NCBI RefSeq assembly: GCF_057098645.1
Contig: NZ_CM169472.1
Length of the DNA: 64,000 nucleotides
Reading direction: 5' to 3' (one strand)
Part shown: positions 1,947-55,691 of the stretch, one piece after another
Position numbering within the stretch: position 1 is the stretch's first letter
Layout: each line of letters begins with the position of its first letter
Notes under the pieces: generated by a model
Databases searched by the model: none
What the model saw: only the letters and a program-made list of their open reading frames with translations
What the model was told of the DNA's origin: nothing
Translations under genes and position numbers: made by a program

Positions 1947-1949
1947 TTC

Positions 1950-2060: not shown

Positions 2061-2101
2061 GCACCGTATCCGGCAAACCATACTCACATCAACAACGAAA
2101 A

Positions 2102-2653: not shown

Positions 2654-2746
2654 CTCAGGCTCCTTAAAAAAAGAGGCTAATGTTACCAGTTAAGATGCGC
2701 ACTGAAAAACGGTTCTCTGTTAGACTTCAGAGAAACTCTCTACATT

Positions 2747-17819: not shown

Positions 17820-17918
17820 CATTTGATTAGACTGGCCCCCTGAATCTCCAGACAACCAGTATCACTTAAATAAGTGATAGTCTTAATACTAGTTTTTAGA
17901 CTAGTCATTGGAGAACAG

Positions 17919-18284
17919 ATGATTGATGTCTTAGGGCCGGAGAAACGCAGACGGCGTACCACACAGGAAAAGATCGCAATTGTTCAGCAGAGCTTTGAAC
18001 CGGGGATGACGGTCTCCCTCGTTGCCCGGCAACATGGTGTAGCAGCCAGCCAGTTATTTCTCTGGCGTAAGCAATACCAGGAAGGAAGTCTTACTGCTGT
18101 GGCCGCCGGAGAACAGGTTGTTCCTGCCTCTGAACTTGCTGCCGCCATGAAGCAGATTAAAGAACTCCAGCGCCTGCTCGGCAAGAAAACGATGGAAAAT
18201 GAACTCCTCAAAGAAGCCGTTGAATATGGACGGGCAAAAAAGTGGATAGCGCACGCGCCCTTATTGCCCGGGGATGGGGAGTAA
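17919..18284 (+). CDS. insC: IS2 OrfA (InsC) HTH transposase subunit
   Basis: [40 protein letters not shown]... IS3-family OrfA. Confidence 0.85.
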
Positions 18285-19147
18285 GCTTAGTCAGCCGTTG
18301 TCTCCGGGTGTCGCGTGCGCAGTTGCACGTCATTCTCAGACGAACCGATGACTGGATGGATGGCCGCCGCAGTCGTCACACTGATGATACGGATGTGCTT
18401 CTCCGTATACACCATGTTATCGGAGAGCTGCCCACGTATGGTTATCGTCGGGTATGGGCGCTGCTTCGCAGACAGGCAGAACTTGATGGTATGCCTGCGA
18501 TCAATGCCAAACGTGTTTACCGGATCATGCGCCAGAATGCGCTGTTGCTTGAGCGAAAACCTGCTGTACCGCCATCGAAACGGGCACATACAGGCAGAGT
18601 GGCCGTGAAAGAAAGCAATCAGCGATGGTGCTCTGACGGGTTCGAGTTCTGCTGTGATAACGGAGAGAGACTGCGTGTCACGTTCGCGCTGGACTGCTGT
18701 GATCGTGAGGCACTGCACTGGGCGGTGACTACCGGCGGCTTCAACAGTGAAACAGTACAGGACGTCATGCTGGGAGCGGTGGAACGCCGCTTCGGCAACG
18801 ATCTTCCGTCGTCTCCAGTGGAGTGGCTGACGGATAATGGTTCATGCTACCGGGCTAATGAAACACGCCAGTTCGCCCGGATGTTGGGACTTGAACCGAA
18901 GAACACGGCGGTGCGGAGTCCGGAGAGTAACGGAATAGCAGAGAGCTTCGTGAAAACGATAAAGCGTGACTACATCAGTATCATGCCCAAACCAGACGGG
19001 TTAACGGCAGCAAAGAACCTTGCAGAGGCGTTCGAGCATTATAACGAATGGCATCCGCATAGTGCGCTGGGTTATCGCTCGCCACGGGAATATCTGCGGC
19101 AGCGGGCTTGTAATGGGTTAAGTGATAACAGATGTCTGGAAATATAG
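18242..19147 (+). CDS. insD: IS2 OrfB (InsD) DDE transposase catalytic subunit
   Basis: 301-aa ORF overlapping orfA in another frame, IS3-family arrangement. Confidence 0.85.
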
Positions 19148-19380
19148 GGGCAAATCCATTGATGCAATATTTTGTCAGCGCAAACGGTTTACTTGAATTA
19201 TAAGTCAAAATATATGCATTTTTATTTGATGTGATTCTGCAGGCGACTGTCGTTCGGTATCAATAATTGCAGACATTTCCTGCTTTTTTCTTTTTCACTT
19301 TCACGCAATCAGATATGCATTTTATTCCATTCATCCGACTTATAGGGCGGAGTGTGAAAACGAACGGCTAACACTATTGC

Positions 19381-34916: not shown

Positions 34917-35252
34917 CCGAATGAACGAATAAAGGGAGCGAAAGCTCCCTTTATTATTGTTAGCAAAGTGTGCTTCGTTCATTCCTGAAAAATTATGAAA
35001 ATCCAATATATTGCAGTGGTGTAGGCATGATAAGACGCGCCAGCGTCGCATCAGGCAAAGACAAATCGCACCTGGCTTACCTTTTTCTCCCCCCCAGCAA
35101 ACTCCCCAACATTCCACGCACAATCTGATTCGTCACCTGGCGGGCGGCGCTTTTCGCCATTGTTTGCACAACACCATCTTTCTTCCCGCCGCGTGGTCCG
35201 GTAGTGCCGAACAAAATATCCTTCAATCCACCAAGAATGCCGTCATCTACCG

Positions 35253-36578
35253 CTACCTCTTTCCCTTTCGCGGGGGATTATTTTGCTGCTCGGTACTGGC
35301 CTGAAAGCCTTTTTGCAACATCTCATAGGCGGATTCCCGGTCCACGTCATCCTCGTACTTGCCATACACCGGAGAGTGATTAATCAAGCCATTGCGCTCA
35401 TCTTCCGTCACCGGTCCCATCCGCGAACAAGGCGCAATCACCATCGCCCGTTCCACCACAGAAGGACTTCCTTTTGCATCGAGAAACGAGATCAACGCTT
35501 CGCCCGTCCCCAGTTCCTGGATTGCCTTTTCGGTATCAAACGCCGGATTAGCCCGCATGGTTTGCGCCGCTGCCTTCACTGCTTTCTGATCTTTTGGCGT
35601 AAAAGCCCGCAAAGCGTGCTGAACGCGATTACCGAGCTGGCCGAGCACATTATCTGGAATATCAGACGGGTTTTGCGAAACGAACCAGACGCCCACGCCT
35701 TTTGAGCGAATAAGCCTTATCACCTGCTCAATCTTATCCAGCAGTACCTGCGGTGCATCGTTAAACAGCAGATGTGCTTCGTCGAAGAAAAACACCAGTT
35801 TTGGCTTCTCCAGATCGCCCGCTTCCGGCAATTGTTCATACAACTCTGAAATCATCCACAGCAGGCTGGCGGCGTACAGTTTCGGCATCTGATAAAGCTT
35901 CTCGGCGCTGAGGATATTAATAACGCCTTTACCGTTGGCATCGGTGCGCATCCAGTCTTTGATATCCAGCATCGGCTCACCAAAGAAGTGTGCTGCGCCT
36001 TGCTGTTCCAGCGACAACAGCCCGCGCTGGATGGCACCAACCGATGCGCTACTGATATTACCGTACTGATTCTGGAAAGATTTGGCGTTATCGCCGATGT
36101 ACTGGGTAATTGCCCGTAGATCTTTAAAGTCGAGCAGTAACAGCCCCTGATCGTCAGCAATGCGGAAAATGATATTCAGCACGCCAGATTGCACATCGTT
36201 GAGATTCAACAGCCGCGCCAGCAACAGCGGCCCCAGATCCGAAACCGTCGCCCGCACCGGGTGGCCTTTCTCGCCAAAGATATCCCACACCACCACCGGA
36301 TTGGCATGCGGTTGCCAGTCATTGACGCCGATATTTTTAAGCCTTGTGAGCAGTTTTTCCGACGCCGTTCCTGCCTGCGCGATACCGGTCAGATCGCCTT
36401 TCACATCAGCCATAAACACCGGAACACCGATTTCCGATAGAGACTCCGCCAGTTTTTGCAGCGTGACAGTTTTACCCGTCCCCGTTGCGCCAGTAATCAG
36501 CCCGTGACGGTTAGCCATTCCCGGCAGTAAAAATAGTTCTGTGTCCGGCGTGCGGGCAATTAACAGGGGTTCGCTCAT
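35253..36578 (-). CDS. yjgR: DUF853 P-loop NTPase YjgR, apparently frameshifted near the 3' end (C-terminal 58 codons continue in another frame to 35077)
   Basis: Walker A GATGTGKT; start assumed at [10 protein letters not shown]; the region 35077-35252 encodes a plausible C-terminus ...[12 protein letters not shown] in a different frame. Confidence 0.75.
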
Positions 36579-36707
36579 GAGATTTCCTCCAGTTTCCTGC
36601 CTGGAGTATAGGCAACGGCTGCGCACTCTTCACCGCTAAATTCAGCAGATTGCGAGACGCCTTCCAAAGAGATTTAAGTGCCGGGCGACAGGCACCCGGC
36701 AAAGGGA

Positions 36708-38007: not shown

Positions 38008-38171
38008 TTATTACTTCCAAGTCCATCCGAGTAAGTCCGATTATCCATTAAAAATCAATACTTTCAGCGATTTCTACGATCTTGGATCGTCCGAGGTTGT
38101 CCGTTGAAATCCGGATGTCATTGGGGGCATAATTGGGGGCATCTTAACTTCGATTAGAAATGTGCCCCCAA

Positions 38172-39446
38172 ATGAAGCTCAATGCTAGACAAGTCGAGAC
38201 AGCAAAGCCAAAAGACAAAAGCTACAAAATGGCCGATGGCGGCGGTTTGTATCTCGAGGTTTCGGCCAAGGGGTCTAAATACTGGCGCATGAAATACCGA
38301 CGCCCCTCTGACAAAAAAGAGGATCGCCTCGCTTTTGGTGTTTGGCCGACCGTGACGCTTGCTGAAGCTAGAACGAGGAGGGATGAAGCGAAAAAGTTGC
38401 TGGCGCAAGGTATAGATCCAAAAGCAGTACAGAAAGAGGCTCAAGCAGAGAATGCTGGTGCTTATAATTTTGAAACTATTGCTCGTGAATGGCACGCCAG
38501 CAACAAACGTTGGAGTGAGGATCATCGGGCGCGTGTTCTTCGCTATCTAGAGCTGTATATCTTTCCTTATATTGGCTTGTCTGATATCCGACAGCTTAAA
38601 ACTAGCCATCTTTTAGCACCGATAAAAAAAGTTGATGCCAGTGGTAAGCATGATGTGGCGCAGCGTCTTCAGCAACGTGTTACTGCTATTATGCGCTATG
38701 CCGTACAGAACGATTATATAGATTCAAATCCTGCAAGTGATATGGCTGGTGCGTTATCGACAGCTAAAACGCGGCACTATCCAGCTCTACCATCACATCG
38801 TTTTCCTGAGTTCTTAGCACGTCTTGCTGCATATCGTGGTCGTATGATGACGAAAATTGCGGTTGAACTTTCTTTATTAACATTTGTTCGTTCCAGTGAG
38901 CTACGTTTCGCTCGCTGGGATGAATTCGACTTCGATAAATCTCTATGGCGTATACCTGCAAAACGCGAGGAAATTAAAGGCGTACGTTACTCATATAGAG
39001 GAATGAAGATGAAGGAAGAGCATCTCGTTCCACTTAGTAGGCAAGCGATAGGGTTGTTGGAGCAGTTAAAGCAGATTAGTGGTGATAAGACGCTGCTTTT
39101 CCCTGGGGATCATGACGCAACTAAGGTTATGAGTGAGAACACTGTTAATAATGCATTGCGTGCGATGGGCTATGATACGAAAACAGAAGTTTGCGGACAT
39201 GGTTTTAGGACAATGGCACGTGGTGCGTTAGGAGAGTCAGGATTATGGAGTGATGATGCTATTGAACGCCAATTGAGCCATTCGGAACGTAATAATGTGC
39301 GAGCTGCGTATATTCATACGTCTGAGCATTTAGATGAGCGCAGACTAATGGTCCAATGGTGGGCAGATTATCTTTATTCCAACAGAGAGAAGCATATCTC
39401 TGCTTTTGAATTTGCAAATAAACTTAATAAAAATAGCCTTGATTAA
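38172..39446 (+). CDS. intB: P4-type tyrosine integrase
   Basis: N-terminus MKLNARQVETAKPKDKSYKMADGGGLYLEV... typical of P4-family integrases, directly downstream of tRNA-Leu. Confidence 0.9.
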   Translation: MKLNARQVETAKPKDKSYKMADGGGLYLEVSAKGSKYWRMKYRRPSDKKEDRLAFGVWPTVTLAEARTRRDEAKKLLAQGIDPKAVQKEAQAENAGAYNFETIAREWHASNKRWSEDHRARVLRYLELYIFPYIGLSDIRQLKTSHLLAPIKKVDASGKHDVAQRLQQRVTAIMRYAVQNDYIDSNPASDMAGALSTAKTRHYPALPSHRFPEFLARLAAYRGRMMTKIAVELSLLTFVRSSELRFARWDEFDFDKSLWRIPAKREEIKGVRYSYRGMKMKEEHLVPLSRQAIGLLEQLKQISGDKTLLFPGDHDATKVMSENTVNNALRAMGYDTKTEVCGHGFRTMARGALGESGLWSDDAIERQLSHSERNNVRAAYIHTSEHLDERRLMVQWWADYLYSNREKHISAFEFANKLNKNSLD

Positions 39447-39613
39447 GTCTCCGCTTAGTTTGAACTAGCCTTCATCAACAGCAATGCTTGTGTCTTTTTA
39501 ACCTTCACTTAACAACTTCTTAGGCAATTATTCCATTGCTTTTAAAAACTAAGTATTCCTTAGTAATTTCGAGTGTAAAAAGTGCAAACCTACCTCCAAA
39601 AAGAGGATTTTCG

Positions 39614-39817
39614 ATGCTTCCAATTAGGTTAAAAAAAGCCCGATTGAATGCTGGGTTAACTCAAGAACAGTTGGGAATACTTGTTGGCATTGATGAATGC
39701 TCTGCCAGTGCTCGCATGAATCAATATGAGAAAGGTAAACATATGCCCGATTTTTCACTTACTAAAAAAATCGCTGATTTATTAAATGTCCCTGTCTCAT
39801 ATTTTTACACACCCTAA
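39614..39817 (+). CDS. XRE-family HTH protein, candidate restriction-modification controller (C protein)
   Basis: 67-aa ORF LKKARLNAGLTQEQLGILVGIDECSASARMNQYEKG..., SD aagagga upstream; precedes a putative R gene. Confidence 0.55.
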   Translation: MLPIRLKKARLNAGLTQEQLGILVGIDECSASARMNQYEKGKHMPDFSLTKKIADLLNVPVSYFYTP

Positions 39818-39911
39818 GATGACTTGGCAGAAATTATTTTGTTGATTAATAAACTAGACAAAAAACAGCGGTTAATTTTATTAAAAAATTTATCAGATGG
39901 ATTTATAAGTC

Positions 39912-40730
39912 ATGAATAAGCAAGAAGTTATACTTAAAGTGCAGGAGTGTGCTGCGTGGTGGATTTTGGAGAGACAAAGTAAACTAACAAAGTTAATGTC
40001 AGAAACAATGTCCATAAATCCGTTTATGACCCCTTTTATTTTTGATTATCATTCCCTTAATGATTTTGATGAACTAGTTGAAGCAATAATTGCTAAGCAT
40101 TTAATGACTGGGCATGATACTGGCTTTGGAAAATTGATTGATGAAAAAATACTTCCTAGAGTGTTTGGTGCATATAAATTAGATAAAAGTTATAGAGCTG
40201 CCAACGAGCCTTTTATACACCCTTGCTTTGATGAAATAGATCATGTAATACAAAGGGATGATGGTAGAATTGAGCTTTTATCTCTTAAGGCAGGGAAATG
40301 GACTATTCAATTGACGATGGCTGTCCAACTAAATAAAGCATTTCACGAAATCATAAATAATTATCCTGGAGTGGCTGACAATATAGTGGTTGGGGTTTTT
40401 TATGGAAATAGCCATGGATTAACTGATAAGTATAGAATCTTACGAGGTATCAATACTGGTGCAAACCACAATGTGATTGATATTCGTGACAAAGTGCATG
40501 TATATGCTGGTAAAGAATTTTGGTCATGGCTTAACAATGGTGAGGCTGAAACCCAGCATTGGGTACTTGAAGGTATAGAACGTGCTGTAAAAGAAGCAGA
40601 TATAAAAGAAAAAAATAAAGATCTTATTGAAAAATTCAAAGAACATGTTGCAAAGAAGTACAATGAGCAAGTTCTAAATGCTGATGGCACAGCTCAATGG
40701 CACAAATTACTTGAAATGATTAATGAATAA
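39912..40730 (+). CDS. uncharacterised protein, candidate type II restriction endonuclease (by context)
   Basis: 272-aa AT-rich ORF convergent with a C5-MTase and preceded by a C-protein-like HTH; possible PD-(D/E)xK-like segment DEIDHVIQRDDGRIELLSLK. Confidence 0.4.
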   Translation: MNKQEVILKVQECAAWWILERQSKLTKLMSETMSINPFMTPFIFDYHSLNDFDELVEAIIAKHLMTGHDTGFGKLIDEKILPRVFGAYKLDKSYRAANEPFIHPCFDEIDHVIQRDDGRIELLSLKAGKWTIQLTMAVQLNKAFHEIINNYPGVADNIVVGVFYGNSHGLTDKYRILRGINTGANHNVIDIRDKVHVYAGKEFWSWLNNGEAETQHWVLEGIERAVKEADIKEKNKDLIEKFKEHVAKKYNEQVLNADGTAQWHKLLEMINE

Positions 40731-40767
40731 AAAACTGGCCTAAGGGCCAGTTTTTTTATGACTAATT

Positions 40768-42021
40768 CTAAACTTCTTCTTCAAGGTCGTAGTAAGAAAC
40801 ATCTCCACTATATGCTTGACCATTTTTAAAGAAAGATCTGGTTCTAATATGCGGTCTAATATGGGTTTCTATATAATCTGGAGTTACTAAATCAGCAACC
40901 TTATTTTCTTGTATACGATGAAGAAGTTCCATAGCAGCTTCCCCTGCAACTTTACCTAACCGGACAGGAACTGCGTTACCTATCTGTCTGAATTTTTCTG
41001 TAGTTGTACCTTCAAATTTCCAGTAATCAGGAAACTCTTGTATCGCGGCAGCTTCACCAACAGAAATAGCTCTAAGTTCAGTTGGGTGGCACATACTTGT
41101 TCCCGCATGATTTGGCATTGTTACTACTGTGGGTGAAGGAAACTGGAAAGATAGTTTCCTCCAGTAAGCACTTCTTCCTCCTTTAAGATACCAGCTTTTT
41201 CCCATAGATTCTTTTTGCATTTCTTCTGGCATGCTTCTCCAGTTTCCGCCAGGTGGAACCATTGAAAGATATTTCAGTTTTCTTGGCGAAAAATTCATGA
41301 CTTCTGGATATTTATCAACAAAACCGCTCTCTGGGCCAATTACATCCCCCAGCGTTTTGAATGGCGGAAGATTATCTTCTACTCTATTGCTGAATAAAGG
41401 GGAGGCGAAATTGGCTATCATTCCGAAGCGATTACCAATTAAAATAACACGCTCCCTAATTTGTGGGGCTCCATAGTTGGCAGCATTAACTACAAAGCAA
41501 TCCACATGATAACCTAGTTTATTGAATTCGTTAGCTACCCTTTTTATTAGAGAGCCTTTTTCGAAAGCAGATGCTGCGATTGTGCCTGATAGCTCCTTCT
41601 TTTTAGAAGCTGGAACTATAGACATTGATAATAAACCGCGTACGTTTTCCATTACGAAAACTTTTGGGTTTAATTCTTTAATCATTCGAACGTATTCGAA
41701 AATAAGCTGCCCTCTGGCATCTTCTAGCCCTAACCTATTTCCAAAAACACTAAATGCTTGGCACGGTGGACCGCCAGCAACTAAATCTATTTCTTCTTTA
41801 TCATTCACTCCGGCTAGTGCTAATAATTCAGAGCCAGTGCAGTCAACAATACTACCTTCGAATACAGCAAGATTTGGCTTATTAGTTTTAATTGTTTTTA
41901 GAGCTGCCTTATCTTGTTCAACGCAAGCTACGAGCTCAAAGCCAGCCTCTTCGAGACCTAAGTCTAACCCCATTGCGCCACTAAATAGCGAAATAAACTT
42001 TTTACTAGACAAAATAATCAC
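40768..42021 (-). CDS. DNA (cytosine-5)-methyltransferase
   Basis: 417-aa ORF with motif I FSGAMG, motif IV GGPPCQAFS, motif VI ENV. Confidence 0.85.
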   Translation of the reverse strand: MIILSSKKFISLFSGAMGLDLGLEEAGFELVACVEQDKAALKTIKTNKPNLAVFEGSIVDCTGSELLALAGVNDKEEIDLVAGGPPCQAFSVFGNRLGLEDARGQLIFEYVRMIKELNPKVFVMENVRGLLSMSIVPASKKKELSGTIAASAFEKGSLIKRVANEFNKLGYHVDCFVVNAANYGAPQIRERVILIGNRFGMIANFASPLFSNRVEDNLPPFKTLGDVIGPESGFVDKYPEVMNFSPRKLKYLSMVPPGGNWRSMPEEMQKESMGKSWYLKGGRSAYWRKLSFQFPSPTVVTMPNHAGTSMCHPTELRAISVGEAAAIQEFPDYWKFEGTTTEKFRQIGNAVPVRLGKVAGEAAMELLHRIQENKVADLVTPDYIETHIRPHIRTRSFFKNGQAYSGDVSYYDLEEEV

Positions 42022-42337
42022 CTACATACTTAGCAGCCAAATACTAGGATATTGTAAAGGATTAACACTAATCCTCAACTCAAGTTTCAGGGATCTTAGC
42101 AGAATCTGCTTTGCAAGGATTCTATGAATGTAAATTAATAGATACTGGCGCGCAGTGCTTTCCCCGCCTCGCCCGCCCGCTTTGCAGGGCGGTTTTAATG
42201 CAGTTGCACAGTCACGCTCAGGCTGCGCCGGGAATGGCGCGGTCTGCAGAGAATGAGGCAGGAAAACGCATGCAAAGCCATGCACCTTATCGATGCATGG
42301 CTTTTTTCAGTAAAAACGGGAGGATTTTCGGGGAATT

Positions 42338-42910
42338 TTACACAGACTGACGTGATGCCAGTTGCGCACTTTTACGCGAAAAAATCATGTTCTGCGCAGG
42401 GGTGAATTTTTCACGGCTGTCATCCACCGAAGCCGCGTCAGGCCTGAATCCGATGGTCGTTAAAATGTCGCTATCCTGTGCGGAATAATTAATTTTTTCA
42501 CCCTTCGCAAGCCAGGACAGGAGGGCTTCACGCAGGGCATCTGTGGCACGCTGTATGGCACAGTTTCGGGCAATGGCCGTCAGCTCACTGTAGCCCATCA
42601 GCTCCGGTGCCAGTGCCGCCGCCAGTGCTGTGCCGTGCTGCTGCATAAAATCATTCAGCCGATCGCGGATGCTGATGTGCTGAACGGCTTCATGCGAACG
42701 AATATAACGACCGGCGGCCTGATTCACCTGCCATTTTCTGACTTCGATAATATTGCGTAATTCGTCCAGGCGACTGACGTTTCTGCCTTCTCCTGACAGA
42801 AGCCGCAGATATTCCTGTTCGGCCGCAGCCAGCTCATTTTTGCGTTGCAGCCATGCTGCTTTGTTATTCTGACAGGTGTCAAAGGCCTGCTGTAAGGCTG
42901 TGCTTTCCAT
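42338..42910 (-). CDS. psu: P4-like polarity suppression protein Psu
   Basis: 190-aa ORF at the end of the sid-delta-psu operon, length and position as in P4. Confidence 0.7.
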   Translation of the reverse strand: MESTALQQAFDTCQNNKAAWLQRKNELAAAEQEYLRLLSGEGRNVSRLDELRNIIEVRKWQVNQAAGRYIRSHEAVQHISIRDRLNDFMQQHGTALAAALAPELMGYSELTAIARNCAIQRATDALREALLSWLAKGEKINYSAQDSDILTTIGFRPDAASVDDSREKFTPAQNMIFSRKSAQLASRQSV

Positions 42911-42983
42911 CGTTATCTCTTTCTCATCATGCTGAAGAATAAAAATACGGTGTGCGGCGACGGCCGGGGTTAACCGGCAGCCC

Positions 42984-43484
42984 TCATTCCAGACGCAGCG
43001 AATATGATTGTGTTTTTAACCGTACTGGCGGCAGTTCCTGTTTTTCATGCAGGCTTTCTGCCAGTTCGTCCGGCGTGACCGGGCGGACAATGAAGCGGTT
43101 GATGGTCTGAAGCGTTTTAAACACCAGACCACAGCCCGGATCCGTGCACACATAAAAACGCTCGGTGACTTCCTGAGACAGACGCCGCGATGTTCTTGAC
43201 AGCGCAAGGCCTTTACATCTCCGACAACAATATCCGGTAACAAGCATTCTTTTCGGGCGCTTCATGCTACCGGAGGCTGACGTCAGTGAATCGCGGTATC
43301 TCTGTTTGCCTGAAATGTATTCCATTCCTGAATCTTTACAGTCAGAGAAAAAGCTTTCACTCGCTTCAAATGTCGCAGAGCAATAAATATTCCGGCACTG
43401 TGCAATCATTATCTTGGTGCCATCGTCCATGAAATGTGCGCGACGGGTGTGAGCAACATGTCCACACGACGGGCAGTAAATCAT
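42984..43484 (-). CDS. delta: P4-like Delta late-gene activator (tandem Ogr-type zinc finger)
   Basis: 166-aa ORF with two CxxC...CxxxxC zinc-finger units (CPSCGH...CRNIYC and CCRRC...CTDPGC). Confidence 0.8.
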   Translation of the reverse strand: MIYCPSCGHVAHTRRAHFMDDGTKIMIAQCRNIYCSATFEASESFFSDCKDSGMEYISGKQRYRDSLTSASGSMKRPKRMLVTGYCCRRCKGLALSRTSRRLSQEVTERFYVCTDPGCGLVFKTLQTINRFIVRPVTPDELAESLHEKQELPPVRLKTQSYSLRLE

Positions 43485-44215
43485 GACAGCAGTCCTCTGG
43501 CCTTAAGCACTGCTCCCTGCTGGTCTATTTTGTCCTGCCACACCTTGCGCTGTGCCGGTGTGCCTGCCACCTCATAATCCATGTGCGGGAGTGTTGCCGC
43601 TGACAGTCCGGTCAGCCGGAGAACCGGCTCGCCGGTGAGGCTGATTTGCATCTGTTTTATTTTCTGTTCCAGCGATGATTTCACCTGCTGCATGACAGCT
43701 TTATCGGGTGCGACGTAGCCCTGATGCCCGGTGGTGTTGGCGAGCGGATTTTCCTGTACCAGAATGCTCAGATGCATTGCCCGGACAAGCGCCTCACAGG
43801 TTTCATTCAGGGCGTGTTCCAGCTCATGCTCTGCATACAGACTCAGAAGGTGATGATGTGCCTTCCGGTAGGCGGTGGCCGTGCTGTCACACGCCCCTTT
43901 CAGGCGTTCACGTTCGAAATTCAGCACCACGGCCAGATTGTCATATTCCTGTACCAGCTCCCGGCGTGCCACGCGCTCAATGTGGCGCTGTTTCAGCTCG
44001 TCGCTCAGGACACCACCGGCTGCACGAAAGGCCGTGCGCCAGTCGTCAGCGTCGTTTCCGTCGGCCTGCGCCAGCGCATTTTTTTCCTGCTCTGCCCGTT
44101 CAATGGCCGTGACGGTCTCATCCATCAGTCGGGCGTTCTCAAGGTGGGCGGCTCTGGCCTTTTCCAGTTGTGCCAGTGCGGGTTGCAGATATTCAGGGAT
44201 GGTGTTGTCAGACAT
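43481..44215 (-). CDS. sid: P4-like Sid capsid size determination protein
   Basis: About 244-aa coiled-coil ORF upstream of delta; start assumed at MSDNTIPEYL. Confidence 0.7.
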   Translation of the reverse strand: MSDNTIPEYLQPALAQLEKARAAHLENARLMDETVTAIERAEQEKNALAQADGNDADDWRTAFRAAGGVLSDELKQRHIERVARRELVQEYDNLAVVLNFERERLKGACDSTATAYRKAHHHLLSLYAEHELEHALNETCEALVRAMHLSILVQENPLANTTGHQGYVAPDKAVMQQVKSSLEQKIKQMQISLTGEPVLRLTGLSAATLPHMDYEVAGTPAQRKVWQDKIDQQGAVLKARGLLS

Positions 44216-44287
44216 TTTCCGGCTCCTCGTCACTTCAGGTTAAGAAAATTGTGACGTACACCGGACAACAACACGACGCATTGCAGA

Positions 44288-44305
44288 TGTGCCAGCCCTG
44301 ACACA
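44288..44305 (-). promoter_or_regulatory. TGT-N12-ACA dyad, candidate Ogr/Delta activator site of the sid late promoter
   Basis: tgtgccagccctgacaca about 70-90 bp upstream of the sid start, matching the P2/P4 late promoter activator-site pattern. Confidence 0.45.
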
Positions 44306-44384
44306 GGAGACTCATCCTCAGACCGGCAAGCCAGGAAAAGGTCGCAGGAAAAACCGGCTTACTGTTTGTTTTTTTATATTTTAC

Positions 44385-44478
44385 TGTTCACCTCTGTTCA
44401 CCATAAGAAAAAAGATAAGTAATACAGTAAGTTAAATGGTGAACAATCGCAGTAATGACTGTTCACCGTCTGTTCACC
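44385..44478. repeat. P4 ori-like cluster of TGTTCACC iterons (alpha-binding type I repeats)
   Basis: Five TGTTCACC/GGTGAACA octamers within 95 bp. Confidence 0.6.
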
Positions 44479-44804
44479 CGTTGATGGACTTTTTGTGCTG
44501 TTTACTACTGTTTATTTTTATTAATTCACTGAAATAAATAAGAAAAAACAATTTGTATTTCACTATAATTTTTTCCAGCTCCTTCCAGAGCGTTTTAAAG
44601 CTATCTGGCGCTGATATACAAAAAATGCACAGCCATTGTAAGGCTGCCGGAACAAATCCCCCCTGTTGCGTCTGCCAAAAATATTCACAAAATAAAGCGC
44701 TACCCGAAGCCGGACGGACTTATCCGGTGCTGTATGGACATTAACGAGGTAGCCCGATGCAAGCTGTTTTTTCTTCCCCGTCTCCCGCCCCTGTGACGCC
44801 ACTG

Positions 44805-45023
44805 ATGCCGCTGCCGGACATCACGCAGGAGCGTTTTTTACGTCTGCCGGAAGTGATGCACCTGTGCGGCCTGTCACGCTCGACCATCTATGAACTCATC
44901 CGTAAGGGGGAATTTCCGCCGCAGGTGAGTCTTGGCGGTAAAAATGTGGCCTGGCTGCACTCTGAAGTCACCGCATGGATGGCCGGACGCATTGCCGGAC
45001 GCAAACGGGGGTACGACGCATGA
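44805..45023 (+). CDS. AlpA/Vis-family phage transcriptional regulator
   Basis: [51 protein letters not shown] matches AlpA-type HTH. Confidence 0.75.
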
Positions 45024-45412
45024 TAGTGCCCGCTCTGCAAAAACTCCCTTTTTCTGGCTTGCCTTTTTCCGGCATTTGCGGATATAGTTTTTCCGCTGCC
45101 GCAAAATCGGCAGCCGGGCGTGAGAACCCGTGTAGCTCGAAGGCGACATATGACGCGCCATGCGTCTTTTTTTGTGTCGCAATCAACGCCACAGAGCGCC
45201 AGATTATGGTGTGGCGTGTGGTTTGCCGTGCAGGTATGATCCTGTTCGCAATCGCATGTTATGCCACTGAGTCAATGGTAGCTCAGGCGGGGCAGCCTCC
45301 GGGCTGGCCGGTATTCTTCGAGGCCGGTATTCTCACCCCCGTCTGGGCTATCGCCATCGAGCGTGAGAACTCCGGCGATAGCAGTTATTTGCTACTCGAA
45401 GGAGGCTGCCTT

Positions 45413-45610
45413 ATGGCTACAACCCTTACCCCCTCACACCCTGAATTTGTCTTTGTGTTTGCGGCTGTCCGTCGCGCAGACCGTCATCCCCGTATCTGCA
45501 TGCTTCGCACCGTCGCCGGTGATGAACGCAGCGCCCGCCGTTCCCTTGTCCGTGACTATGTGCTCTCCCTTGCTGCCCGTCTGCCGGTGGTGGAGGTGTC
45601 CCGTGCGTAA
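45413..45610 (+). CDS. small hypothetical protein of the P4-like early region
   Basis: 65-codon ORF with strong SD ggagg 8 nt upstream; the longer listed ORF 44975..45610 is rejected. Confidence 0.35.
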
Positions 45611-45915
45611 TAAAAGCCCCTCAGACCGTCTCAGCGCGTCATGACGCCCGTGAACACCTCAGCATTGAGGCTTACCATAAGCTCAACCGCGCCAGCGCCG
45701 TATCCCGGTTTGTTGCAAAATGGCATCTGAATCGATCGCAGTTTGGCATTCGAATCGATCATGATTTGGCATCCATCTCCGATCACAGTTTGGCATCACA
45801 ATCGATCACGATTTGGCATGCTTCCGATCATTGATTGGCATCCTGCCAGTCACTCCGGGAATTAACTCTTTTCACCACAGTCTCCATTGCCGTGTTTAAA
45901 CCAGTGGAGACGTCA

Positions 45916-47481
45916 ATGTCCAGAAAGAGAAAATCCAGGAGCACTATGGAAACCTGTTTTAAGATCCTTCAGCTCAAGTTCGACAAGAAGCTGACTAACC
46001 GTTGTATCGGACTGACGTTACACATCAGCGCCTCAACCGTTTTTGAGGTTCTTGCCCGCTTCAAAGCCTCTTCTCTGTCATGGCCATTACCTGCTGATAT
46101 ATCCCATGACACGCTGGAGAAACTCATTTTTCCGCCCAAAGACACCTTTGCATCAGAGCTTGTAATGCCTGACATGTTGTACTTCGATACGGAAATGAGA
46201 AAACCAGGTGTGACGCGGCAACTGTTGTGGATGGAATACAAGGCACAGGCGGGTAACAAAGCGATGGGATACTCGCACTTCTGCCGTTGCTACCGGGAGT
46301 GGAAAAAAACGCGACGTCTCTCCATGCGCCAGGAGCATCGTGCCGGCGAAAAGCTTTTTATCGACTTCTGTGGTCCTACGGTTCCTGTTATTAATCCGGA
46401 CACCGGTGAGATACGCCGCGTGGCAATCTTCGTGGCCGTAATGGGGGCGTCCAACTATACCTACGTTGAAGCGTGCGAAGGTCAGGACATGATGTCATGG
46501 TTAAATGCCCACAGCCGTTGCCTGACCTTCCTGGGCGGCGTACCGAAGCTGCTCATCCCCGATAACCTCAGAAGCGCAGTGAAAAAGGCCGATCGATATG
46601 AGCCTGTCATCAACGACAGTTATCAGGCACTGGCTGAGCACTATGGCACGGTTATCATCCCGGCCCGACCACGCAAACCTAAAGATAAACCAAAAGCAGA
46701 AAACGGCGTCCTCATCGTTGAACGATGGCTTCTTGCCCGCATCCGTAATGAAACCTTCCACACGCTCAGGGCGCTGAATGCGCGCCTTAGGGAGTTACTG
46801 ACAGACATGAATAACCGGCCAATGAAGGGGTACGGCAATCAAACCCGTGCAGAACGCTTCCGCATACTGGATGCGCCAGCACTCTCTCCGCTGCCTCTGG
46901 CACCTTATGAATACACGGAATACAAAGCTGTGAAGGTTGGCCCTGACTACCACGTTGAATATGCCCGTCACTGGTACTCCGTTCCACACGAACTGGTCGG
47001 TCAGCGTCTGTCACTGAAGGCGGGGCAGTCGGTGGTACAGCTCTGGCACAAGGGGCAGTGTGTGGCGCAACATCCGCGCAGCACACATGAATATAAACAC
47101 ACAACCAATCCGCTTCACATGCCAGAGCGCCACCGGCAGCACGGGACATGGACACCGGAACGCCTGATCGAGCAGGGAAAACGTACGGGCCCGTCCACAG
47201 GCCGGGTGGTTGAATCCATGCTGAAGGCAAAACCCCATCCGGAACTGGCTTATCGTGCAGTTCTGGGGCTGCTGGCACTTCAGAAAAAATACGGCCCGGA
47301 ACGGCTGGAAAAGGCCTGTTACGTTGCCCTGCACTATAACGCCCCTGACAGACGCTTTATCGACAATCTGCTGCGTCACCATCGGGAGAACCTGGAGCTT
47401 CCATTATCCCGCCAGGGCGAACAACATCCGGCATATGCTTCAGAGCATGAAAACCTGCGTGGTCCGGGCTACTACCACTGA
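45916..47481 (+). CDS. istA: IS21-family transposase IstA
   Basis: About 520-aa ORF with N-terminal HTH and DDE-type core, followed by istB. Confidence 0.75.
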   Translation: MSRKRKSRSTMETCFKILQLKFDKKLTNRCIGLTLHISASTVFEVLARFKASSLSWPLPADISHDTLEKLIFPPKDTFASELVMPDMLYFDTEMRKPGVTRQLLWMEYKAQAGNKAMGYSHFCRCYREWKKTRRLSMRQEHRAGEKLFIDFCGPTVPVINPDTGEIRRVAIFVAVMGASNYTYVEACEGQDMMSWLNAHSRCLTFLGGVPKLLIPDNLRSAVKKADRYEPVINDSYQALAEHYGTVIIPARPRKPKDKPKAENGVLIVERWLLARIRNETFHTLRALNARLRELLTDMNNRPMKGYGNQTRAERFRILDAPALSPLPLAPYEYTEYKAVKVGPDYHVEYARHWYSVPHELVGQRLSLKAGQSVVQLWHKGQCVAQHPRSTHEYKHTTNPLHMPERHRQHGTWTPERLIEQGKRTGPSTGRVVESMLKAKPHPELAYRAVLGLLALQKKYGPERLEKACYVALHYNAPDRRFIDNLLRHHRENLELPLSRQGEQHPAYASEHENLRGPGYYH

Positions 47482-47497
47482 CAGAAGGAACAACAGT

Positions 47498-48253
47498 ATG
47501 AGTGATAACCTGTTAAACAAACTGACCCAACTGAAACTCCCGGCGATGGCCGGGAGCCTGATACGGCAGCGGGAAACGCCTCAGACCTACGACGAACTGT
47601 CGTTCGAGGAAAGGCTGACGCTGCTGGTTGATGACGAGCTTCTGAGCAGGGAAAACAGCCGTGTGGCACGGTTGAGAAAAAATGCCGGCCTGAAATACCA
47701 GGCAACACCGGAAGGGCTGCGCTATCCGGCCTCAAGAGGTCTGCGGGCTGAACAGATGAGAGAACTGCTGAACGGCCACTACATAACCCACAGGAAAAAC
47801 CTGCTGATAACCGGTCCGACAGGATGTGGCAAGAGCTGGATAGCCAATGCGCTGGGCGAACAGGCATGTCGACAGAAACACAGCGTCCGGTACTGTAGAA
47901 CCGGGCGATTACTGGAACAACTGGCTCAGGGACGTGTTGATGGCAGCTGGCTGAAATATCTGAAACAGTTGCAAAAAATACAGGTTCTAATCCTGGACGA
48001 TCTGGGGCTGGAACAGTTAAGTAACGCCCAGTGTAATGACCTTCTGGAGCTCATAGAGGATCGTTACGGACAAAGCAGCACGATAGTGGTAAGCCAGTTC
48101 CCGGTAGATAAATGGCATGGTCTGATGGAGAACCCAACAACAGCAGATGCCATCCTGGACAGACTGGTACATAACTCACACCGAGTGGTCCTTCAGGGAG
48201 AGTCACTGAGGAAAAATCCCCCGGTAGTGGAAAGCAGCGAAAAAACGCGTTAA
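47498..48253 (+). CDS. istB: IS21-family ATP-binding helper IstB
   Basis: Walker A GPTGCGKS, Walker B ILDDLG, C-terminal ILDRLVHNSHRVVLQGESLR as in IstB. Confidence 0.8.
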   Translation: MSDNLLNKLTQLKLPAMAGSLIRQRETPQTYDELSFEERLTLLVDDELLSRENSRVARLRKNAGLKYQATPEGLRYPASRGLRAEQMRELLNGHYITHRKNLLITGPTGCGKSWIANALGEQACRQKHSVRYCRTGRLLEQLAQGRVDGSWLKYLKQLQKIQVLILDDLGLEQLSNAQCNDLLELIEDRYGQSSTIVVSQFPVDKWHGLMENPTTADAILDRLVHNSHRVVLQGESLRKNPPVVESSEKTR

Positions 48254-48525
48254 AAAGCGGTAGAAAAAGTTAAGTTCCCGGTTGATCGAATGGATGCGAA
48301 TCGCTGATCGGACTTCGATGCCAATCCGTGATCGAATAGAGCGGAATACGCAGTTTGTTGGGGGTGATTTGATTCACCGTGAACTCTCCGGCCTGCATCA
48401 GCTCTACATTCCGCATATTTTCAGTTACCTGAATGAAGATATTGATTTTGTGCTGAATGAACTGAAAGCCAAAGGCCTGTGCCGCGATTTTCTCGCCCAG
48501 CAGAAAGACCGGGGAGACAGGACGC

Positions 48526-48981
48526 ATGTTTGATTTTCCCCAGCCCGGTGAGATTTACCGTTCTGCCGGTTTTCCCGATGTGGCCGTGGTCGGCATTCTG
48601 GAAGACGGTATTCCGTGGGAAATGCCGTACCGCTGCCCGGACATTGTCTGGAACCCGTACCGCCGTAAATTCAGTATCCTTGTGCGTATCCTCGCTGACG
48701 GGCGCACCACAGACATCCCGCTGGGGCGTTTTCTGCGGGAATTTACCTGTGACCGTCCTGACCTGTTTAAACGCAGCCCCGTAAACCGGCATGCGGTACT
48801 GAAAGAAATGGCCGGAGACCCGGAATTACAGAAATGGCGGGAGAAATATCTGGATATTTACCCGCAGGACCCTGTTCCGGTCAGCCGGGCGGCACCGGTG
48901 GCGCGGGAATGGCGGGAAATTCCCCGCACGGAGCCTGACCCGGAAATCACCCCGGATAACAGTTACCGCAATTATCTGTAA
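48526..48981 (+). CDS. P4-like early-region protein (orf151 equivalent)
   Basis: 151-aa ORF upstream of alpha in the same orientation. Confidence 0.5.
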   Translation: MFDFPQPGEIYRSAGFPDVAVVGILEDGIPWEMPYRCPDIVWNPYRRKFSILVRILADGRTTDIPLGRFLREFTCDRPDLFKRSPVNRHAVLKEMAGDPELQKWREKYLDIYPQDPVPVSRAAPVAREWREIPRTEPDPEITPDNSYRNYL

Positions 48982-49116
48982 TTAAAAAACGACACCCGAA
49001 AAATTAAATGTGCGTATTCGCGCAGGGATACGCACGTCTTCAGGAGACGCAGATATGCCTTATCAGTTAATGCAACCGGCACGGAATGCAGTCATCTGTC
49101 ACAGGGAGGAAAACAA

Positions 49117-49437
49117 ATGAAAACACCCTTACCGCCCGTCTTACGCGCTGCCCTTTACCGTCGCGCTGTCGCCTGTGCCTGGCTGACCGTGTGCGAACGT
49201 CAGCACCGCTACCCGCATCTCACCCTTGAGTCACTGGAAGCGGCCATCGCCGCTGAGCTGGAAGGCTTTTATCTGCGCCAGCACGGTGAGGAAAAAGGGC
49301 GTCAGATAGCCTGTGCCCTGCTGGAAGATTTAATGGAATCCGGCCCCCTGAAGGCCGCGCCGTCGCTGTCCTTTCTCGGGCTGGTTGTGATGGATGAACT
49401 CTGTGCCCGTCACATAAAAGCGCCGGTACTGCACTGA
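49117..49437 (+). CDS. P4-like early-region protein (orf106 equivalent)
   Basis: 106-aa ORF immediately upstream of alpha. Confidence 0.5.
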
Positions 49438-49451
49438 AGGAGAACAACACC

Positions 49452-51785
49452 ATGAAAATGAACGTAACCGCCACCGTCAGCCATGCGCTCGGCCACTGGC
49501 CGCGTATTCTCCCGGCGCTGGGGATTCAGGTGCTGAAAAACCGTCATCAGCCCTGTCCGGTCTGTGGCGGGAGTGACCGCTTCCGTTTTGATGACAGGGA
49601 GGGGCGCGGCACCTGGTACTGCAATCAGTGTGGTGCCGGTGACGGCCTGAAACTGGTTGAAAAGGTGTTTGGTGTCTCCCCGTCCGACGCGGCCGCAAAG
49701 GTGGCTGCCGTGACCGGCAGCCTGCCCCCGGCTGACCCGGCAGTGACGGCTGCCGCCGGTGCTGAAACAGACGCTGCCCGGAAGAACGCCGCCGCACTGG
49801 CACAAACCCTGATGGCGAAAACCCGTCCCGGAACCGGTAACGCCTACCTGACCCGCAAGGGCTTTCCCGGCCGGGAATGCCGGATGCTGACCGGCACACA
49901 CAGATCCGGTGGCGTGAGCTGGCGTGCCGGTGACCTTGTGGTGCCACTGTATGACGACAGCGGCGAACTGGTTAACCTTCAGTTAATCAGTGCTGACGGC
50001 CGTAAGCGCACCCTGAAAGGCGGACAGGTCAGGGGCACCTGTCACACCCTTGAAGGACAGAATCAGGCCGGAAAACGTCTGTGGATAGCGGAGGGATACG
50101 CGACCGCACTTACCGTACATCACCTGACCGGTGAAACGGTGATGGTGGCGCTTTCTTCCGTGAACCTCCTTTCTCTGGCCAGCCTTGCCCGGCAGAAGCA
50201 TCCGGCCTGTCAGATTGTCCTTGCCGCAGACCGTGACCTCAGCGGTGACGGCCAGAAAAAAGCCGCCGCAGCCGCAGATGCGTGTGAGGGCGTTGTTGCC
50301 CTGCCGCCGGTCTTCGGTGACTGGAATGATGCCTTCACGCAGTACGGCGGGGAGGCCACCCGTAAGGCCATTTACGATGCCATCCGGCCACCGGCTGAAA
50401 GCCCGTTCGACACCATGAGCGAAGCAGAGTTTTCCGCCATGAGTACCAGCGAAAAGGCCATGCGTATCTATGAGCATTACGGCGAGGCGCTCGCGGTTGA
50501 TGCCAACGGCCAGCTTCTGTCCCGTTATGAAAATGGTGTCTGGAAGGTGCTGCCGCCACAGGACTTTGCCCGGGATGTGGCCGGGCTGTTTCAGCGTCTG
50601 CGCGCGCCGTTCTCCTCCGGGAAGGTGGCCTCCGTGGTGGACACCCTGAAGCTGATTATTCCGCAGCAGGAAGCCCCCTCCCGCCGCCTGATTGGCTTTC
50701 GTAACGGCGTGCTCGACACGCAGAACGGCACGTTCCACCCGCACAGTCCGTCACACTGGATGCGCACCCTGTGCGATGTGGATTTCACCCCGCCGGTGGA
50801 CGGTGAAACGCTGGAGACCCACGCCCCCGCGTTCTGGCGCTGGCTTGACCGTGCCGCCGGTGGCCGTGCGGAAAAACGCGACGTGATTCTGGCCGCACTG
50901 TTTATGGTGCTGGCAAACCGCTATGACTGGCAGCTCTTTCTGGAGGTGACCGGTCCCGGCGGCAGCGGCAAAAGTATCATGGCCGAAATAGCCACCCTGC
51001 TGGCCGGTGAGGATAACGCCACGTCGGCCACTATTGAGACGCTGGAATCCCCGCGTGAACGTGCCGCGTTAACTGGCTTCTCACTGATACGCCTGCCGGA
51101 CCAGGAAAAATGGAGCGGCGACGGTGCCGGACTCAAGGCCATCACCGGCGGCGATGCGGTGTCCGTGGACCCGAAATACCGGGATGCGTACTCCACGCAT
51201 ATCCCGGCGGTGATTCTGGCCGTGAACAATAACCCGATGCGCTTCACCGACCGCAGCGGCGGCGTGTCACGCCGGCGGGTGATTATTCACTTCCCGGAAC
51301 AGATAGCCCCGCAGGAGCGCGACCCGCAACTTAAGGACAAAATCACCCGCGAGCTGGCGGTCATCGTGCGTCACCTGATGCAGAAGTTCAGCGACCCGAT
51401 GCTCGCCCGGTCACTGCTTCAGTCCCAGCAGAACTCAGACGAGGCACTGAACATCAAACGGGATGCCGACCCGACGTTTGATTTTATCGGCTATCTGGAA
51501 ACCCTGCCGCAGACCAGCGGCATGTATATGGGGAACGCCAGTATCATCCCGCGTAATTACCGTAAATACCTCTATCACGCCTATCTGGCCTACATGGAGG
51601 CAAACGGCTACCGGAATGTACTCAGTCTGAAAATGTTCGGGCTGGGGCTGCCGGTGATGCTGAAGGAATACGGGCTGAATTACGAGAAGCGCCATACCAA
51701 ACAGGGGATACAGACCAACCTGACGCTGAAAGAGGAAAGCTACGGCGACTGGCTGCCAAAATGTGACGACCCTGCAACAACCTGA
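49452..51785 (+). CDS. alpha: P4-like alpha primase-helicase
   Basis: 777-aa ORF with N-terminal zinc-binding primase motif (CPVCGG...CNQCG), Walker A GPGGSGKS, P4 position. Confidence 0.85.
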   Translation: MKMNVTATVSHALGHWPRILPALGIQVLKNRHQPCPVCGGSDRFRFDDREGRGTWYCNQCGAGDGLKLVEKVFGVSPSDAAAKVAAVTGSLPPADPAVTAAAGAETDAARKNAAALAQTLMAKTRPGTGNAYLTRKGFPGRECRMLTGTHRSGGVSWRAGDLVVPLYDDSGELVNLQLISADGRKRTLKGGQVRGTCHTLEGQNQAGKRLWIAEGYATALTVHHLTGETVMVALSSVNLLSLASLARQKHPACQIVLAADRDLSGDGQKKAAAAADACEGVVALPPVFGDWNDAFTQYGGEATRKAIYDAIRPPAESPFDTMSEAEFSAMSTSEKAMRIYEHYGEALAVDANGQLLSRYENGVWKVLPPQDFARDVAGLFQRLRAPFSSGKVASVVDTLKLIIPQQEAPSRRLIGFRNGVLDTQNGTFHPHSPSHWMRTLCDVDFTPPVDGETLETHAPAFWRWLDRAAGGRAEKRDVILAALFMVLANRYDWQLFLEVTGPGGSGKSIMAEIATLLAGEDNATSATIETLESPRERAALTGFSLIRLPDQEKWSGDGAGLKAITGGDAVSVDPKYRDAYSTHIPAVILAVNNNPMRFTDRSGGVSRRRVIIHFPEQIAPQERDPQLKDKITRELAVIVRHLMQKFSDPMLARSLLQSQQNSDEALNIKRDADPTFDFIGYLETLPQTSGMYMGNASIIPRNYRKYLYHAYLAYMEANGYRNVLSLKMFGLGLPVMLKEYGLNYEKRHTKQGIQTNLTLKEESYGDWLPKCDDPATT

Positions 51786-51792
51786 CCCACCT

Positions 51793-51818
51793 GACCGGCA
51801 TCTGCCGGTCTTTTTTTA
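51793..51818 (+). terminator. intrinsic terminator downstream of alpha
   Basis: ccggcatctgccgg hairpin followed by a T7 run. Confidence 0.6.
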
Positions 51819-51825
51819 TCCCGAC

Positions 51826-52115
51826 ATCCCCCGAAGGTGAACAATCCACTGTTCACCCTTCACCGTATATTCACCCGTTATCACACTGAAATTAAAAGAG
51901 AAAAACGAAAGGTGAACAGTGTGAACAATCAAATCAAAAAAAACTTTTTTCTCCCTGCGTGATTTTCAGTGCAGGGGACTAATCGCCGGTATGAGTCACA
52001 CCGGCAGAATACCGGAGGTGAAGAATCGAATGTTCACCCTTCACCCATTATTCACCACCTATCATACTGAAATAAAAGGAGAAAAAAGAAAGGTGAACAG
52101 TGTGAACAGTTCTTT
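51826..52115. repeat. crr-like cis replication region: two direct repeats of about 105 bp, each carrying TGTTCACC/GGTGAACA iterons
   Basis: Copies at about 51831-51935 and 52005-52110, near-identical. Confidence 0.65.
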
Positions 52116-52320
52116 CGAAAAAAAATTTTTTATGTGGATAAAAGATGCACTGGTTTGGATCCGAGCTACGGATCCAAACTTACTGATTAAAAATGATTTA
52201 ACTTTCCGATTTATTGATGGGCTGAAAATAGATTGGTCAGAAAAACAGTGGGGGCACAAAAGGGGGCATATTTCATTGTTGTGTTTTATTATTTGTTTTT
52301 TATCATTAACTTATTTTGAT

Positions 52321-52344
52321 GTTTGAGTCCGGCCTTCGCACCAC
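52321..52344 (+). repeat. degenerate direct repeat of the tRNA-Leu 3' end (attR-like island boundary)
   Basis: gtttgagtccggccttcgcaccac versus tRNA 3' end gttcgagtccggccttcggcacca. Confidence 0.55.
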
Positions 52345-53020
52345 ACCGTATGCAAATCGAGTCGCTCAAGGGCGGCTTTTTTTGTGTCTGAAATCACCCA
52401 TATCCGTGCAGTATATAGGCCTGCCAGAAAAGCAGTTCAGTATTCTTCATTTTGTAGTCGATGGTCCCAAGTTTGCTCTGGCTGGAAGCTGCATCGTCCA
52501 CATTACGTGGGCAGGGTGGTTTCGCTATGCTACTTGAACGTTTTGACCATGTGGCTCAGGTAGCTAATATCAAAAGACGTCATTTTGTCTCCACGCCCAC
52601 CTTGGTGAACATTCAATAAATAGTTTCGGTCGAGAGCAGTTATGTAGGGCTAGCAGACGAGATGCGCAGACATCTTGTTGAAGACAATTATACTGACCAC
52701 CTGAGAACGCTATTCTACCGAATAATATTTATTATCTTGGCGAATAATGATGATTACCTGTGTAACTATGGTTTTATGCTGATGGGACCGGCAGTACAAT
52801 TTCTGTAGTGTACTCGCAATTTCAGATCTCTGGCGTTTATTCTGGTGCAAAGGAGGTATGTGATGAAAACTTTGCTACCATGCCATTAAATGCGACCAAT
52901 ATCGGATTATCCATCAGTTGCTTGTCGTAGATTTCATTGGTTATAAAAATGCAAGGTGTAAAAGATGAAATTTATAATTATTAGTTAAGTGGCTAGTTTT
53001 ATAGTAATTTAGACAATAGG

Positions 53021-55069: not shown

Positions 55070-55092
55070 AGCAATTTATTATATAGTCCATG

Positions 55093-55134
55093 TTATTCAC
55101 TGATTATATTATTGATAATATAATCAGTGAATAA
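55093..55134. promoter_or_regulatory. 42-bp perfect inverted repeat (20-bp arms, 2-nt centre)
   Basis: ttattcactgattatattat tg ataatataatcagtgaataa, 24 bp downstream of the 682-aa ORF stop. Confidence 0.4.
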
Positions 55135-55467
55135 CTCTAATTTTTTTAATGTTGGGGGGTAGCCTGAAATTGAAATTGGTACTACGGAACGGTATGATCA
55201 TATCGCATCAAAATATCAAGGTAGTGATGATTTTCTACGCAACGATCCAGAAACGTGGATTTTATCATCACCATAAGCAATGGCAGCGACAACACCATCA
55301 ATTTCTATATCAAAGGTGGTGAAATGAATTAGAAAATTGTTTATTTAATCCATTAGCGATAAGTTTTATTGTTATTTAGCCGAGATATATTCCATTGAAA
55401 AAAGTAAATTGGCACTGATATTATATCAAATGGGAATAATCCTTTTGTAAATAAGCTGAGGAATGTG

Positions 55468-55650
55468 TTAATTCACATCCAGCGCCTTATAAACCGCATC
55501 AACCGGTTCTGAGTAAAAACTTACCTGAAACTTGGTAAACAACTCTGCCGGAACTGTTGGAATATCCATAGCCGAGGATATCGGCAACAGAACACGTTTT
55601 GCGCCGCTATCGAAGGCGAGTTGTAAACTAGCGGCAAGATCCTGCACTGA
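55468..55650 (-). pseudogene. C-terminal remnant of a Lon-like (S16) protease gene
   Basis: 60-codon open frame without start: ...AKRVLLPISSAMDIPTVPAELFTKFQVSFYSEPVDAVYKALDVN resembles the Lon protease domain C-terminus; truncated at the 5' side. Confidence 0.3.
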
Positions 55651-55691
55651 TTATGTCAGCAATATTGAACATACTGCGATAGTTATCAACC

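Follow-up and report, generated by a model that had tools for sequence, protein, structure and literature searches.

Layout of the yjgR Locus and Its Reading Frames

The window, i.e., the whole analyzed stretch of 64,000 nucleotides (contig NZ_CM169472.1 of the RefSeq assembly GCF_057098645.1), represents a segment of an E. coli chromosome in which lptF-lptG (+ strand), yjgR (− strand), ahr (− strand) and a tRNA-Leu gene (+ strand) follow each other. Among the RefSeq complete E. coli genomes compared, no collinear counterpart of the window layout was found. The following features were located at yjgR:

35077..36578, − strand: whole yjgR locus, frameshifted, 1502 nt compared with 1503 nt in the intact gene
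35253..36578, − strand: upstream frame of yjgR, an ORF with a Pfam HerA_C match that encodes the 441-aa truncated product and ends with TAG at 35255-35253
35272..35276, − strand: C5 homopolymer, site of the 1-nt deletion as placed by alignment (C6 in intact genes)
35077..35277, − strand: downstream frame of yjgR, the orphaned C-terminal coding sequence ending with TAA (translation; HerA_C match)
35089..35095, − strand: a further homopolymer (coding strand: G7) in the 3'-terminal part of yjgR; intact in the window and a recurrent frameshift site in other genomes
36586..36590, − strand: Shine-Dalgarno-like GGAGG, read from the sequence, 7 nt upstream of the yjgR ATG

The ATG at 36578-36576 was taken as the start codon of yjgR since its 7-nt spacing to the GGAGG motif fits, and RefSeq CDS coordinates of identical alleles agree with this assignment. 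The original prediction had placed the end of the YjgR frame at 35253, followed by a second frame of about 58 codons reaching 35077, with a total span one nucleotide short of a multiple of three. All three statements hold: the premature TAG lies at 35255-35253, the second frame stays open over 66 codons starting at 35277, approx. 58 of which lie past the premature stop, and ends with TAA at 35079-35077, and the span from the start codon to the final stop (36578..35077) amounts to 1502 nt (3n+2). The resulting 441-aa product, whose exact sequence is also present in a public protein collection, keeps the P-loop ATPase core with Walker A (GATGTGKT) and Walker B-like (FFFDEAH) motifs and ends in RKGKR, where intact YjgR has AKGKE.

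Position of the Lesion and Comparison with Native YjgR

In order to place the indel, the 3' end of the window's yjgR was aligned with nine intact and frameshifted relatives. On the coding strand, the window reads AATAAT-CCCCC-GCG, whereas intact yjgR reads AATAAT-CCCCCC-GCG. The lesion hence corresponds to a C6 run shortened by a single C to C5 at 35272-35276 (+ strand: G5), which narrows the homopolymer region initially suspected at 35255-35280 to one tract and gives the exact indel as C6 to C5. C6 was present in the aligned sequences of RM9872, XH990 and RM12367-C1. Intact yjgR is read there as AAT AAT CCC CCC GCG AAA GGG AAA GAG GTA (NNPPAKGKEV); in the window, the frame shifts after Pro436 into RKGKR and reaches a stop at codon 442. 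Compared with the intact O145-type allele, the downstream frame carries no substitutions.

The intact O145-type allele (WP_001400713.1) encodes a protein of 500 aa, which matches the family profile HerA_C (PF05872) over profile positions 3-502 of 502. The 441-aa product matches profile positions 3-435 of 502 (E 2e-239), and the downstream frame alone matches positions 438-502 of 502 (E 1.3e-9), showing that HerA_C homology runs on across the frame break. Since the profile continues in the downstream frame, the short form does not represent the native gene. Orthologues do not stop at the position of the premature TAG but are uninterrupted. In a collection of 15 billion proteins, the intact 500-aa allele occurs in 3196 blocks, compared with 26 for the truncated product; searches of RefSeq complete E. 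coli genomes for exact matches gave 111 records with the C6 82-mer and seven with the C5 81-mer. The assumption of a native 441-aa isoform was thus rejected.

The lost tail comprises 59 C-terminal residues that are conserved family-wide according to the HerA_C profile. This tail is basic (net charge +6) and contains an amphipathic stretch around residues 470-485. A full-length YjgR structure with six chains is deposited as PDB 11kk ('HerA like helicase YjgR'). A literature search by gene name matched 25 papers; the 15 listed mention yjgR no more than twice, and none of them deals with its function, and a search for DUF853 returned generic HerA papers only.

The Shortened Tract in Independent Assemblies of the Window's Lineage

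Assemblies of the same lineage were retrieved by look-up of two exact protein sequences, truncated YjgR and YjgM-H28, and their contigs were then compared base by base. In view of structural differences between genomes, relatives were compared with the window as BLAST blocks. All 12 independently produced assemblies with window-type context that were checked carry C5. They originate from different archives and assemblers, with five drafts from NCBI, a single ENA metagenome scaffold and six read assemblies from Logan:

NCBI drafts L016, L042, L043, L050 and L052, as a group with the accessions GCA_032490195.1, GCA_015672185.1, GCA_015672865.1, GCA_015673775.1 and GCA_022217545.1; C5
ENA metagenome scaffold L044: ERZ28574757; C5
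Logan read assemblies L046 (DRR634163), L047 (DRR634222) and L048 (SRR29931313); C5
Logan read assemblies L049 (SRR21585338), L022 (SRR32390198) and L021 (ERR12122442); C5

Identity to the window was 99.96–100% except for L042 (99.92%), for which the match (20.5 kb) includes the variable P4-like island. Indels relative to the window were limited to two gaps in L021, both in the integrase, and one in L042. The match to L050 spans 20.5 kb with no mismatches and no gaps, and that to L043 17.6 kb with one mismatch and no gaps.

Markers common to the 12 assemblies are YjgM Q28H and/or the P4-like island at tRNA-Leu. Across the shared approx. 40 kb, six SNPs are private to the window with respect to the O145:H28 complete genomes (11708G, 25776A, 53363G, 54298C, 58568A and 60833T), among which 25776A changes Q28 of YjgM to H. 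C5 co-segregates with 25776A and with the island at tRNA-Leu encoding a 424-aa integrase, as well as with an IS2 copy in a sub-branch. The integrase was also considered as a lineage marker in its own right and discarded as too widespread (4459 blocks including O157:H7). Every individually checked assembly of the window's clade possesses C5. Among the contigs compared, C6 occurred together with the same YjgM protein in L051 alone, a member of another lineage with approx. 98.9% identity over most of the alignment and 95.8% at the yjgR end.

Furthermore, the six other G/C runs of at least 6 nt in the window are all present and show no length difference from the relatives covering them: five lie in shared sequence and agree with the O145:H28 majority, and the sixth (44658) agrees with draft L042. 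Against O157:H7 sequence, compared over 10.3 kb, the window shows no indel other than that in the yjgR tract. On either side of the tract, C5 and C6 genomes do not differ in their yjgR sequence; therefore, the clade-restricted C5 is not explained by a systematic error driven by sequence context.

The Same Tract in O145:H28 Complete Genomes

C5 was also found in six RefSeq complete genomes of O145:H28, namely 95-3192, RM9873-C1, RM8843-C1, RM8995-C1, RM12522-C8 and RM12275-C1. Five of these share the full yjgR gene with the window at 100% identity; RM12275-C1 was added by the exact C5 81-mer search. Near-clonal siblings (RM9872, RM9872-C1, RM9467-C1, RM8988-C1 and RM11626-C1) possess C6. The direct contrasts are RM9873-C1 versus RM9872, RM9872-C1 and RM9467-C1, RM8843-C1 and RM8995-C1 versus RM8988-C1, and RM12522-C8 versus RM11626-C1. 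According to SNP haplotypes in the shared 40 kb, the C5 assemblies fall on at least four backgrounds.

Every indel that differs among the O145:H28 assemblies, considering the shared approx. 40 kb and the 3' G7 run of yjgR, is a one-base loss in a G/C run of at least 6 nt. Besides the yjgR C6 tract, these are:

bdcR C6, approx. 20837: one-base loss in RM12522-C8 (10692-11284 in L014), with a 'frameshifted' call
intergenic G6, approx. 55154: one-base loss in RM8843-C1 (L013)
yjgR 3' G7 to G6: one-base loss in RM12275-C1 and RM12367-C1, resulting in a 559-aa CDS overlapping lptG

Genome lengths of clonal O145:H28 siblings differ by only tens of bases. Strain 95-3192 originates from a study titled as PacBio-only (reference 42 in PMC9144400). 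Taken together, near-clonal O145:H28 assemblies differ in C5/C6, yet carry other homopolymer losses. This pattern suggests that the singleton G/C-run losses in the 'RM…-C1' records are uncorrected long-read homopolymer errors, and the C5 calls in several published O145:H28 complete genomes are probably artefacts. As a negative control for PacBio-only assemblies, the G7 to G6 change was considered and failed, the 559-aa variants being present in many draft assemblies as well.

Recurrence of Frameshifts at the 3' End of yjgR

Besides the window's clade, at least three further backgrounds acquired a shortened tract independently. One is the bovine E2863 clade, whose yjgR (approx. 95.9% DNA identity, three amino-acid differences) is annotated by PGAP as 'frameshifted'. 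Shortened tracts were also found in USDA-ARS-USMARC-51408, in two NCTC records and in L045, a read-derived group with a different leuX island. Moreover, many 559-aa read-through products, arising at the 3' G7 run of yjgR on different alleles, are contained in a cluster of 71 members. Based on these findings, the 3' end of yjgR is a hot spot for both mutation and sequencing error, and selection is unnecessary to explain the recurrence of frameshifts there.

Mobile Elements, Repeats and Defence Genes in the Window

Several further elements were observed. A copy of IS2 (17828-19158; ends TAGACTGGCCCC… and …GGGGCAAATCCA) is flanked by a 5-bp target duplication (TTGAT) and lies 58-62 bp ahead of pyrL, the leader of the pyrBI operon, where it could alter pyrBI promoter activity. 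None of the O145:H28 complete genomes compared contains this copy, and it is likewise missing from L050, a member of the window's own clade. The L052 contig stops precisely at the junction with IS2, and that of L016 has its mapped end within the IS2 terminus. Because short-read assemblies break at repeats in this way, this shows that the L016 and L052 isolates share the insertion, and IS2 thus marks a sub-branch of the clade.

A P4-like satellite prophage of 14.3 kb (38008-52320) is integrated at tRNA-Leu, bounded by a repeat of the tRNA 3' end (…GAGTCCGGCCTTCG…), and absent from the O145:H28 complete genomes compared. Besides the 424-aa integrase (38172-39446), its coding content comprises a DNA methylase, an HTH protein, Psu, Ogr/Delta, AlpA and Ash-like genes. 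Compared with the clade draft L042, the island contains an extra 2.6 kb (45716-48352), which was assigned to the IS21 family because it encodes an IstA-like transposase (rve and Mu-transposase C-terminal domain) and an IstB-like ATPase.

Between holC and pepA, a tandem array (30655-30950) consists of 3.1 copies of a 96-bp unit with 93% matches and was classified as BIME-type because the unit contains REP-like palindromes (GCCTGATGCGACGCT…CTTATCAGGCCTAC). At least five independent Logan contigs end exactly at 35029, approx. 48 nt past the yjgR stop and inside a REP-like element (gcctgatgcgacgctggcgcgtcttatcatgcctac), which represents a repeat-induced break in the assembly graph.

The region from approx. 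52321 to 64000 (corresponding to 27984-39664 of L010) harbors a cluster of defence genes, named here after the RefSeq annotation of collinear O145:H28 genomes, among them a phosphorothioated-DNA-binding restriction endonuclease, a type II Zorya system (zorA2, zorB2, zorE) and a protein of the STY4851/ECs_5259 family. In the reference genomes, two large DEAD/DEAH-box helicases and a hypothetical gene labeled 'frameshifted; incomplete' come next, mostly or wholly past the end of the window.

Interpretation of the yjgR Frameshift

Based on the reproduction of C5 in independent assemblies of the same lineage and its restriction to this clade, the change from C6 to C5 is very probably a genuine, vertically inherited single-base deletion that became fixed in the window's lineage. 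The original prediction had left the choice between a pseudogenizing mutation and a sequencing error; recovery of the same C5 in the 12 lineage assemblies decides it in favor of a genuine mutation. Replication slippage in the homopolymer would be the most likely origin of the loss. The shifted frame appends RKGKR after Pro436 and terminates translation at codon 442, so that the predicted product retains the P-loop ATPase core and loses the basic, family-conserved tail of 59 residues. The lineage carrying the deletion is characterized by an O145:H28-like backbone with YjgM Q28H and the P4-like satellite at tRNA-Leu. The deletion is young because the orphaned downstream frame has accumulated no substitutions. 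Considering the family-level conservation of the tail, the truncation likely impairs YjgR function. A polar effect on the next gene is not expected because this gene, lptG, is convergent.

Given a real deletion, the 441-aa protein might still be a working and possibly advantageous variant, with recurrent tail loss resulting from selection. Retention of the ATPase core and of 87% of the HerA_C profile is compatible with this, as are the independent shortening of the tract on at least three other backgrounds and the many tail-altering variants arising at the neighboring G7 run. However, recurrence at a homopolymer is expected without selection, several of the recurrent cases are long-read assemblies and may be artefacts themselves, C5 accounts for less than 1% of the occurrences of this yjgR allele (26 versus 3196 blocks), and conservation of the tail across the family argues that it matters. 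A working variant is accordingly considered unlikely. An even bolder extension of this idea would be that loss of the tail, or of YjgR as a whole, is advantageous in cattle-associated and STEC lineages and was for that reason removed repeatedly, as in the window's clade, the E2863 clade, USMARC-51408 and the 559-aa G7 variants. If true, the two 3' homopolymers would act as an evolutionary switch for an uncharacterized HerA-like ATPase, but this proposal is regarded as decidedly improbable.

An assembly artefact, by which the true genome would possess C6 and the consensus would have dropped one base, is very unlikely for the window. The tract is a G/C homopolymer and thus a classic place for long-read consensus errors; the six O145:H28 complete assemblies whose near-clonal siblings possess C6 demonstrate that an artefact can yield exactly this sequence, all differing indels among the O145:H28 assemblies are losses of the same kind, and at least 95-3192 is attributed to a study with PacBio-only in its title (PMC9144400). 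Against this stand the identical C5 in the 12 independent assemblies, the tracking of C5 with 25776A and the leuX island despite identical flanks in C5 and C6 genomes, and the lack of any other homopolymer discrepancy in the window, including a gap-free match of 20.5 kb to L050.

CGA is a codon that is decoded slowly in E. coli. Recoding, in which ribosomes would slip by −1 on CCC CCG before the rare CGA codon and produce full-length YjgR from the C5 allele, follows a certain sequence logic (Pro-tRNA on CCG can re-pair with CCC, and the slip restores the exact wild-type sequence), but is scarcely credible and was rejected, in programmed or tolerated form, because more than 99% of orthologues are plainly in frame and the arrangement is thus unconserved, an X XXY YYZ heptamer is missing, a U preceding the run (U CCC CCG), and the RNA downstream shows no excess of structure over shuffled controls (z = −1.41; equally good folding in 18 of 200 shuffles).

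For the preferred reading, i.e., an inherited deletion, the biological weight is small: it describes a young, lineage-specific truncation in a gene of poorly understood role, and frameshifted yjgR is already known in kind, annotation pipelines flagging such lesions. The C5 allele in combination with YjgM Q28H represents a usable marker of the O145:H28-like clade. Moreover, the case illustrates a read-free test to distinguish a homopolymer indel from a long-read artefact, namely reproduction in independent assemblies of the same lineage. Several complete O145:H28 genomes have been published with an identical 'frameshifted yjgR' call; caution is warranted here as well, since these calls are probably errors.

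Comparison with Known Systems

The locus corresponds to E. coli YjgR (DUF853/PF05872, HerA_C) in the same setting of lptF-lptG, yjgR, ahr and tRNA-Leu. Compared with the intact O145:H28 allele WP_001400713.1, identity of the window is 100% up to residue 436 and, after the change of frame, also from residue 442 to the end. It differs by one missing C of the C6 run, which results in a predicted product of 441 instead of 500 aa without profile positions 438-502.

The O145:H28 assemblies with a 'frameshifted' call by RefSeq/PGAP contain a yjgR that is base-for-base identical to that of the window, including C5; identical alleles are annotated in RefSeq as 'yjgR, helicase HerA-like C-terminal domain-containing protein, frameshifted'. 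In contrast to the window, these assemblies lack 25776A, the IS2 insertion and the P4-like island, and their near-clonal siblings do not share C5. They also show further singleton losses in G/C runs, so that C5 may be an assembly artefact in the O145:H28 complete records; in the window's clade, it is inherited.

The frameshifts of the E2863 clade, USMARC-51408 and the NCTC records affect the same tract, lead to the same 441-aa truncation and received the same PGAP flag. E2863 (approx. 96% DNA identity) and USMARC-51408 (with a K-12-like idnR neighbor) represent allele backgrounds that differ from that of the window; their frameshifts are therefore separate events and not a matter of shared ancestry.

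Finally, yjgR resembles phase-variable contingency loci in that a G/C mononucleotide run switches the frame through a change in its length. In contrast to such loci, the yjgR run is only 6 nt long, the −1 state alone was seen and is stable across the clade, and no regulatory logic is apparent. The yjgR tract behaves as an ordinary mutational hot spot.
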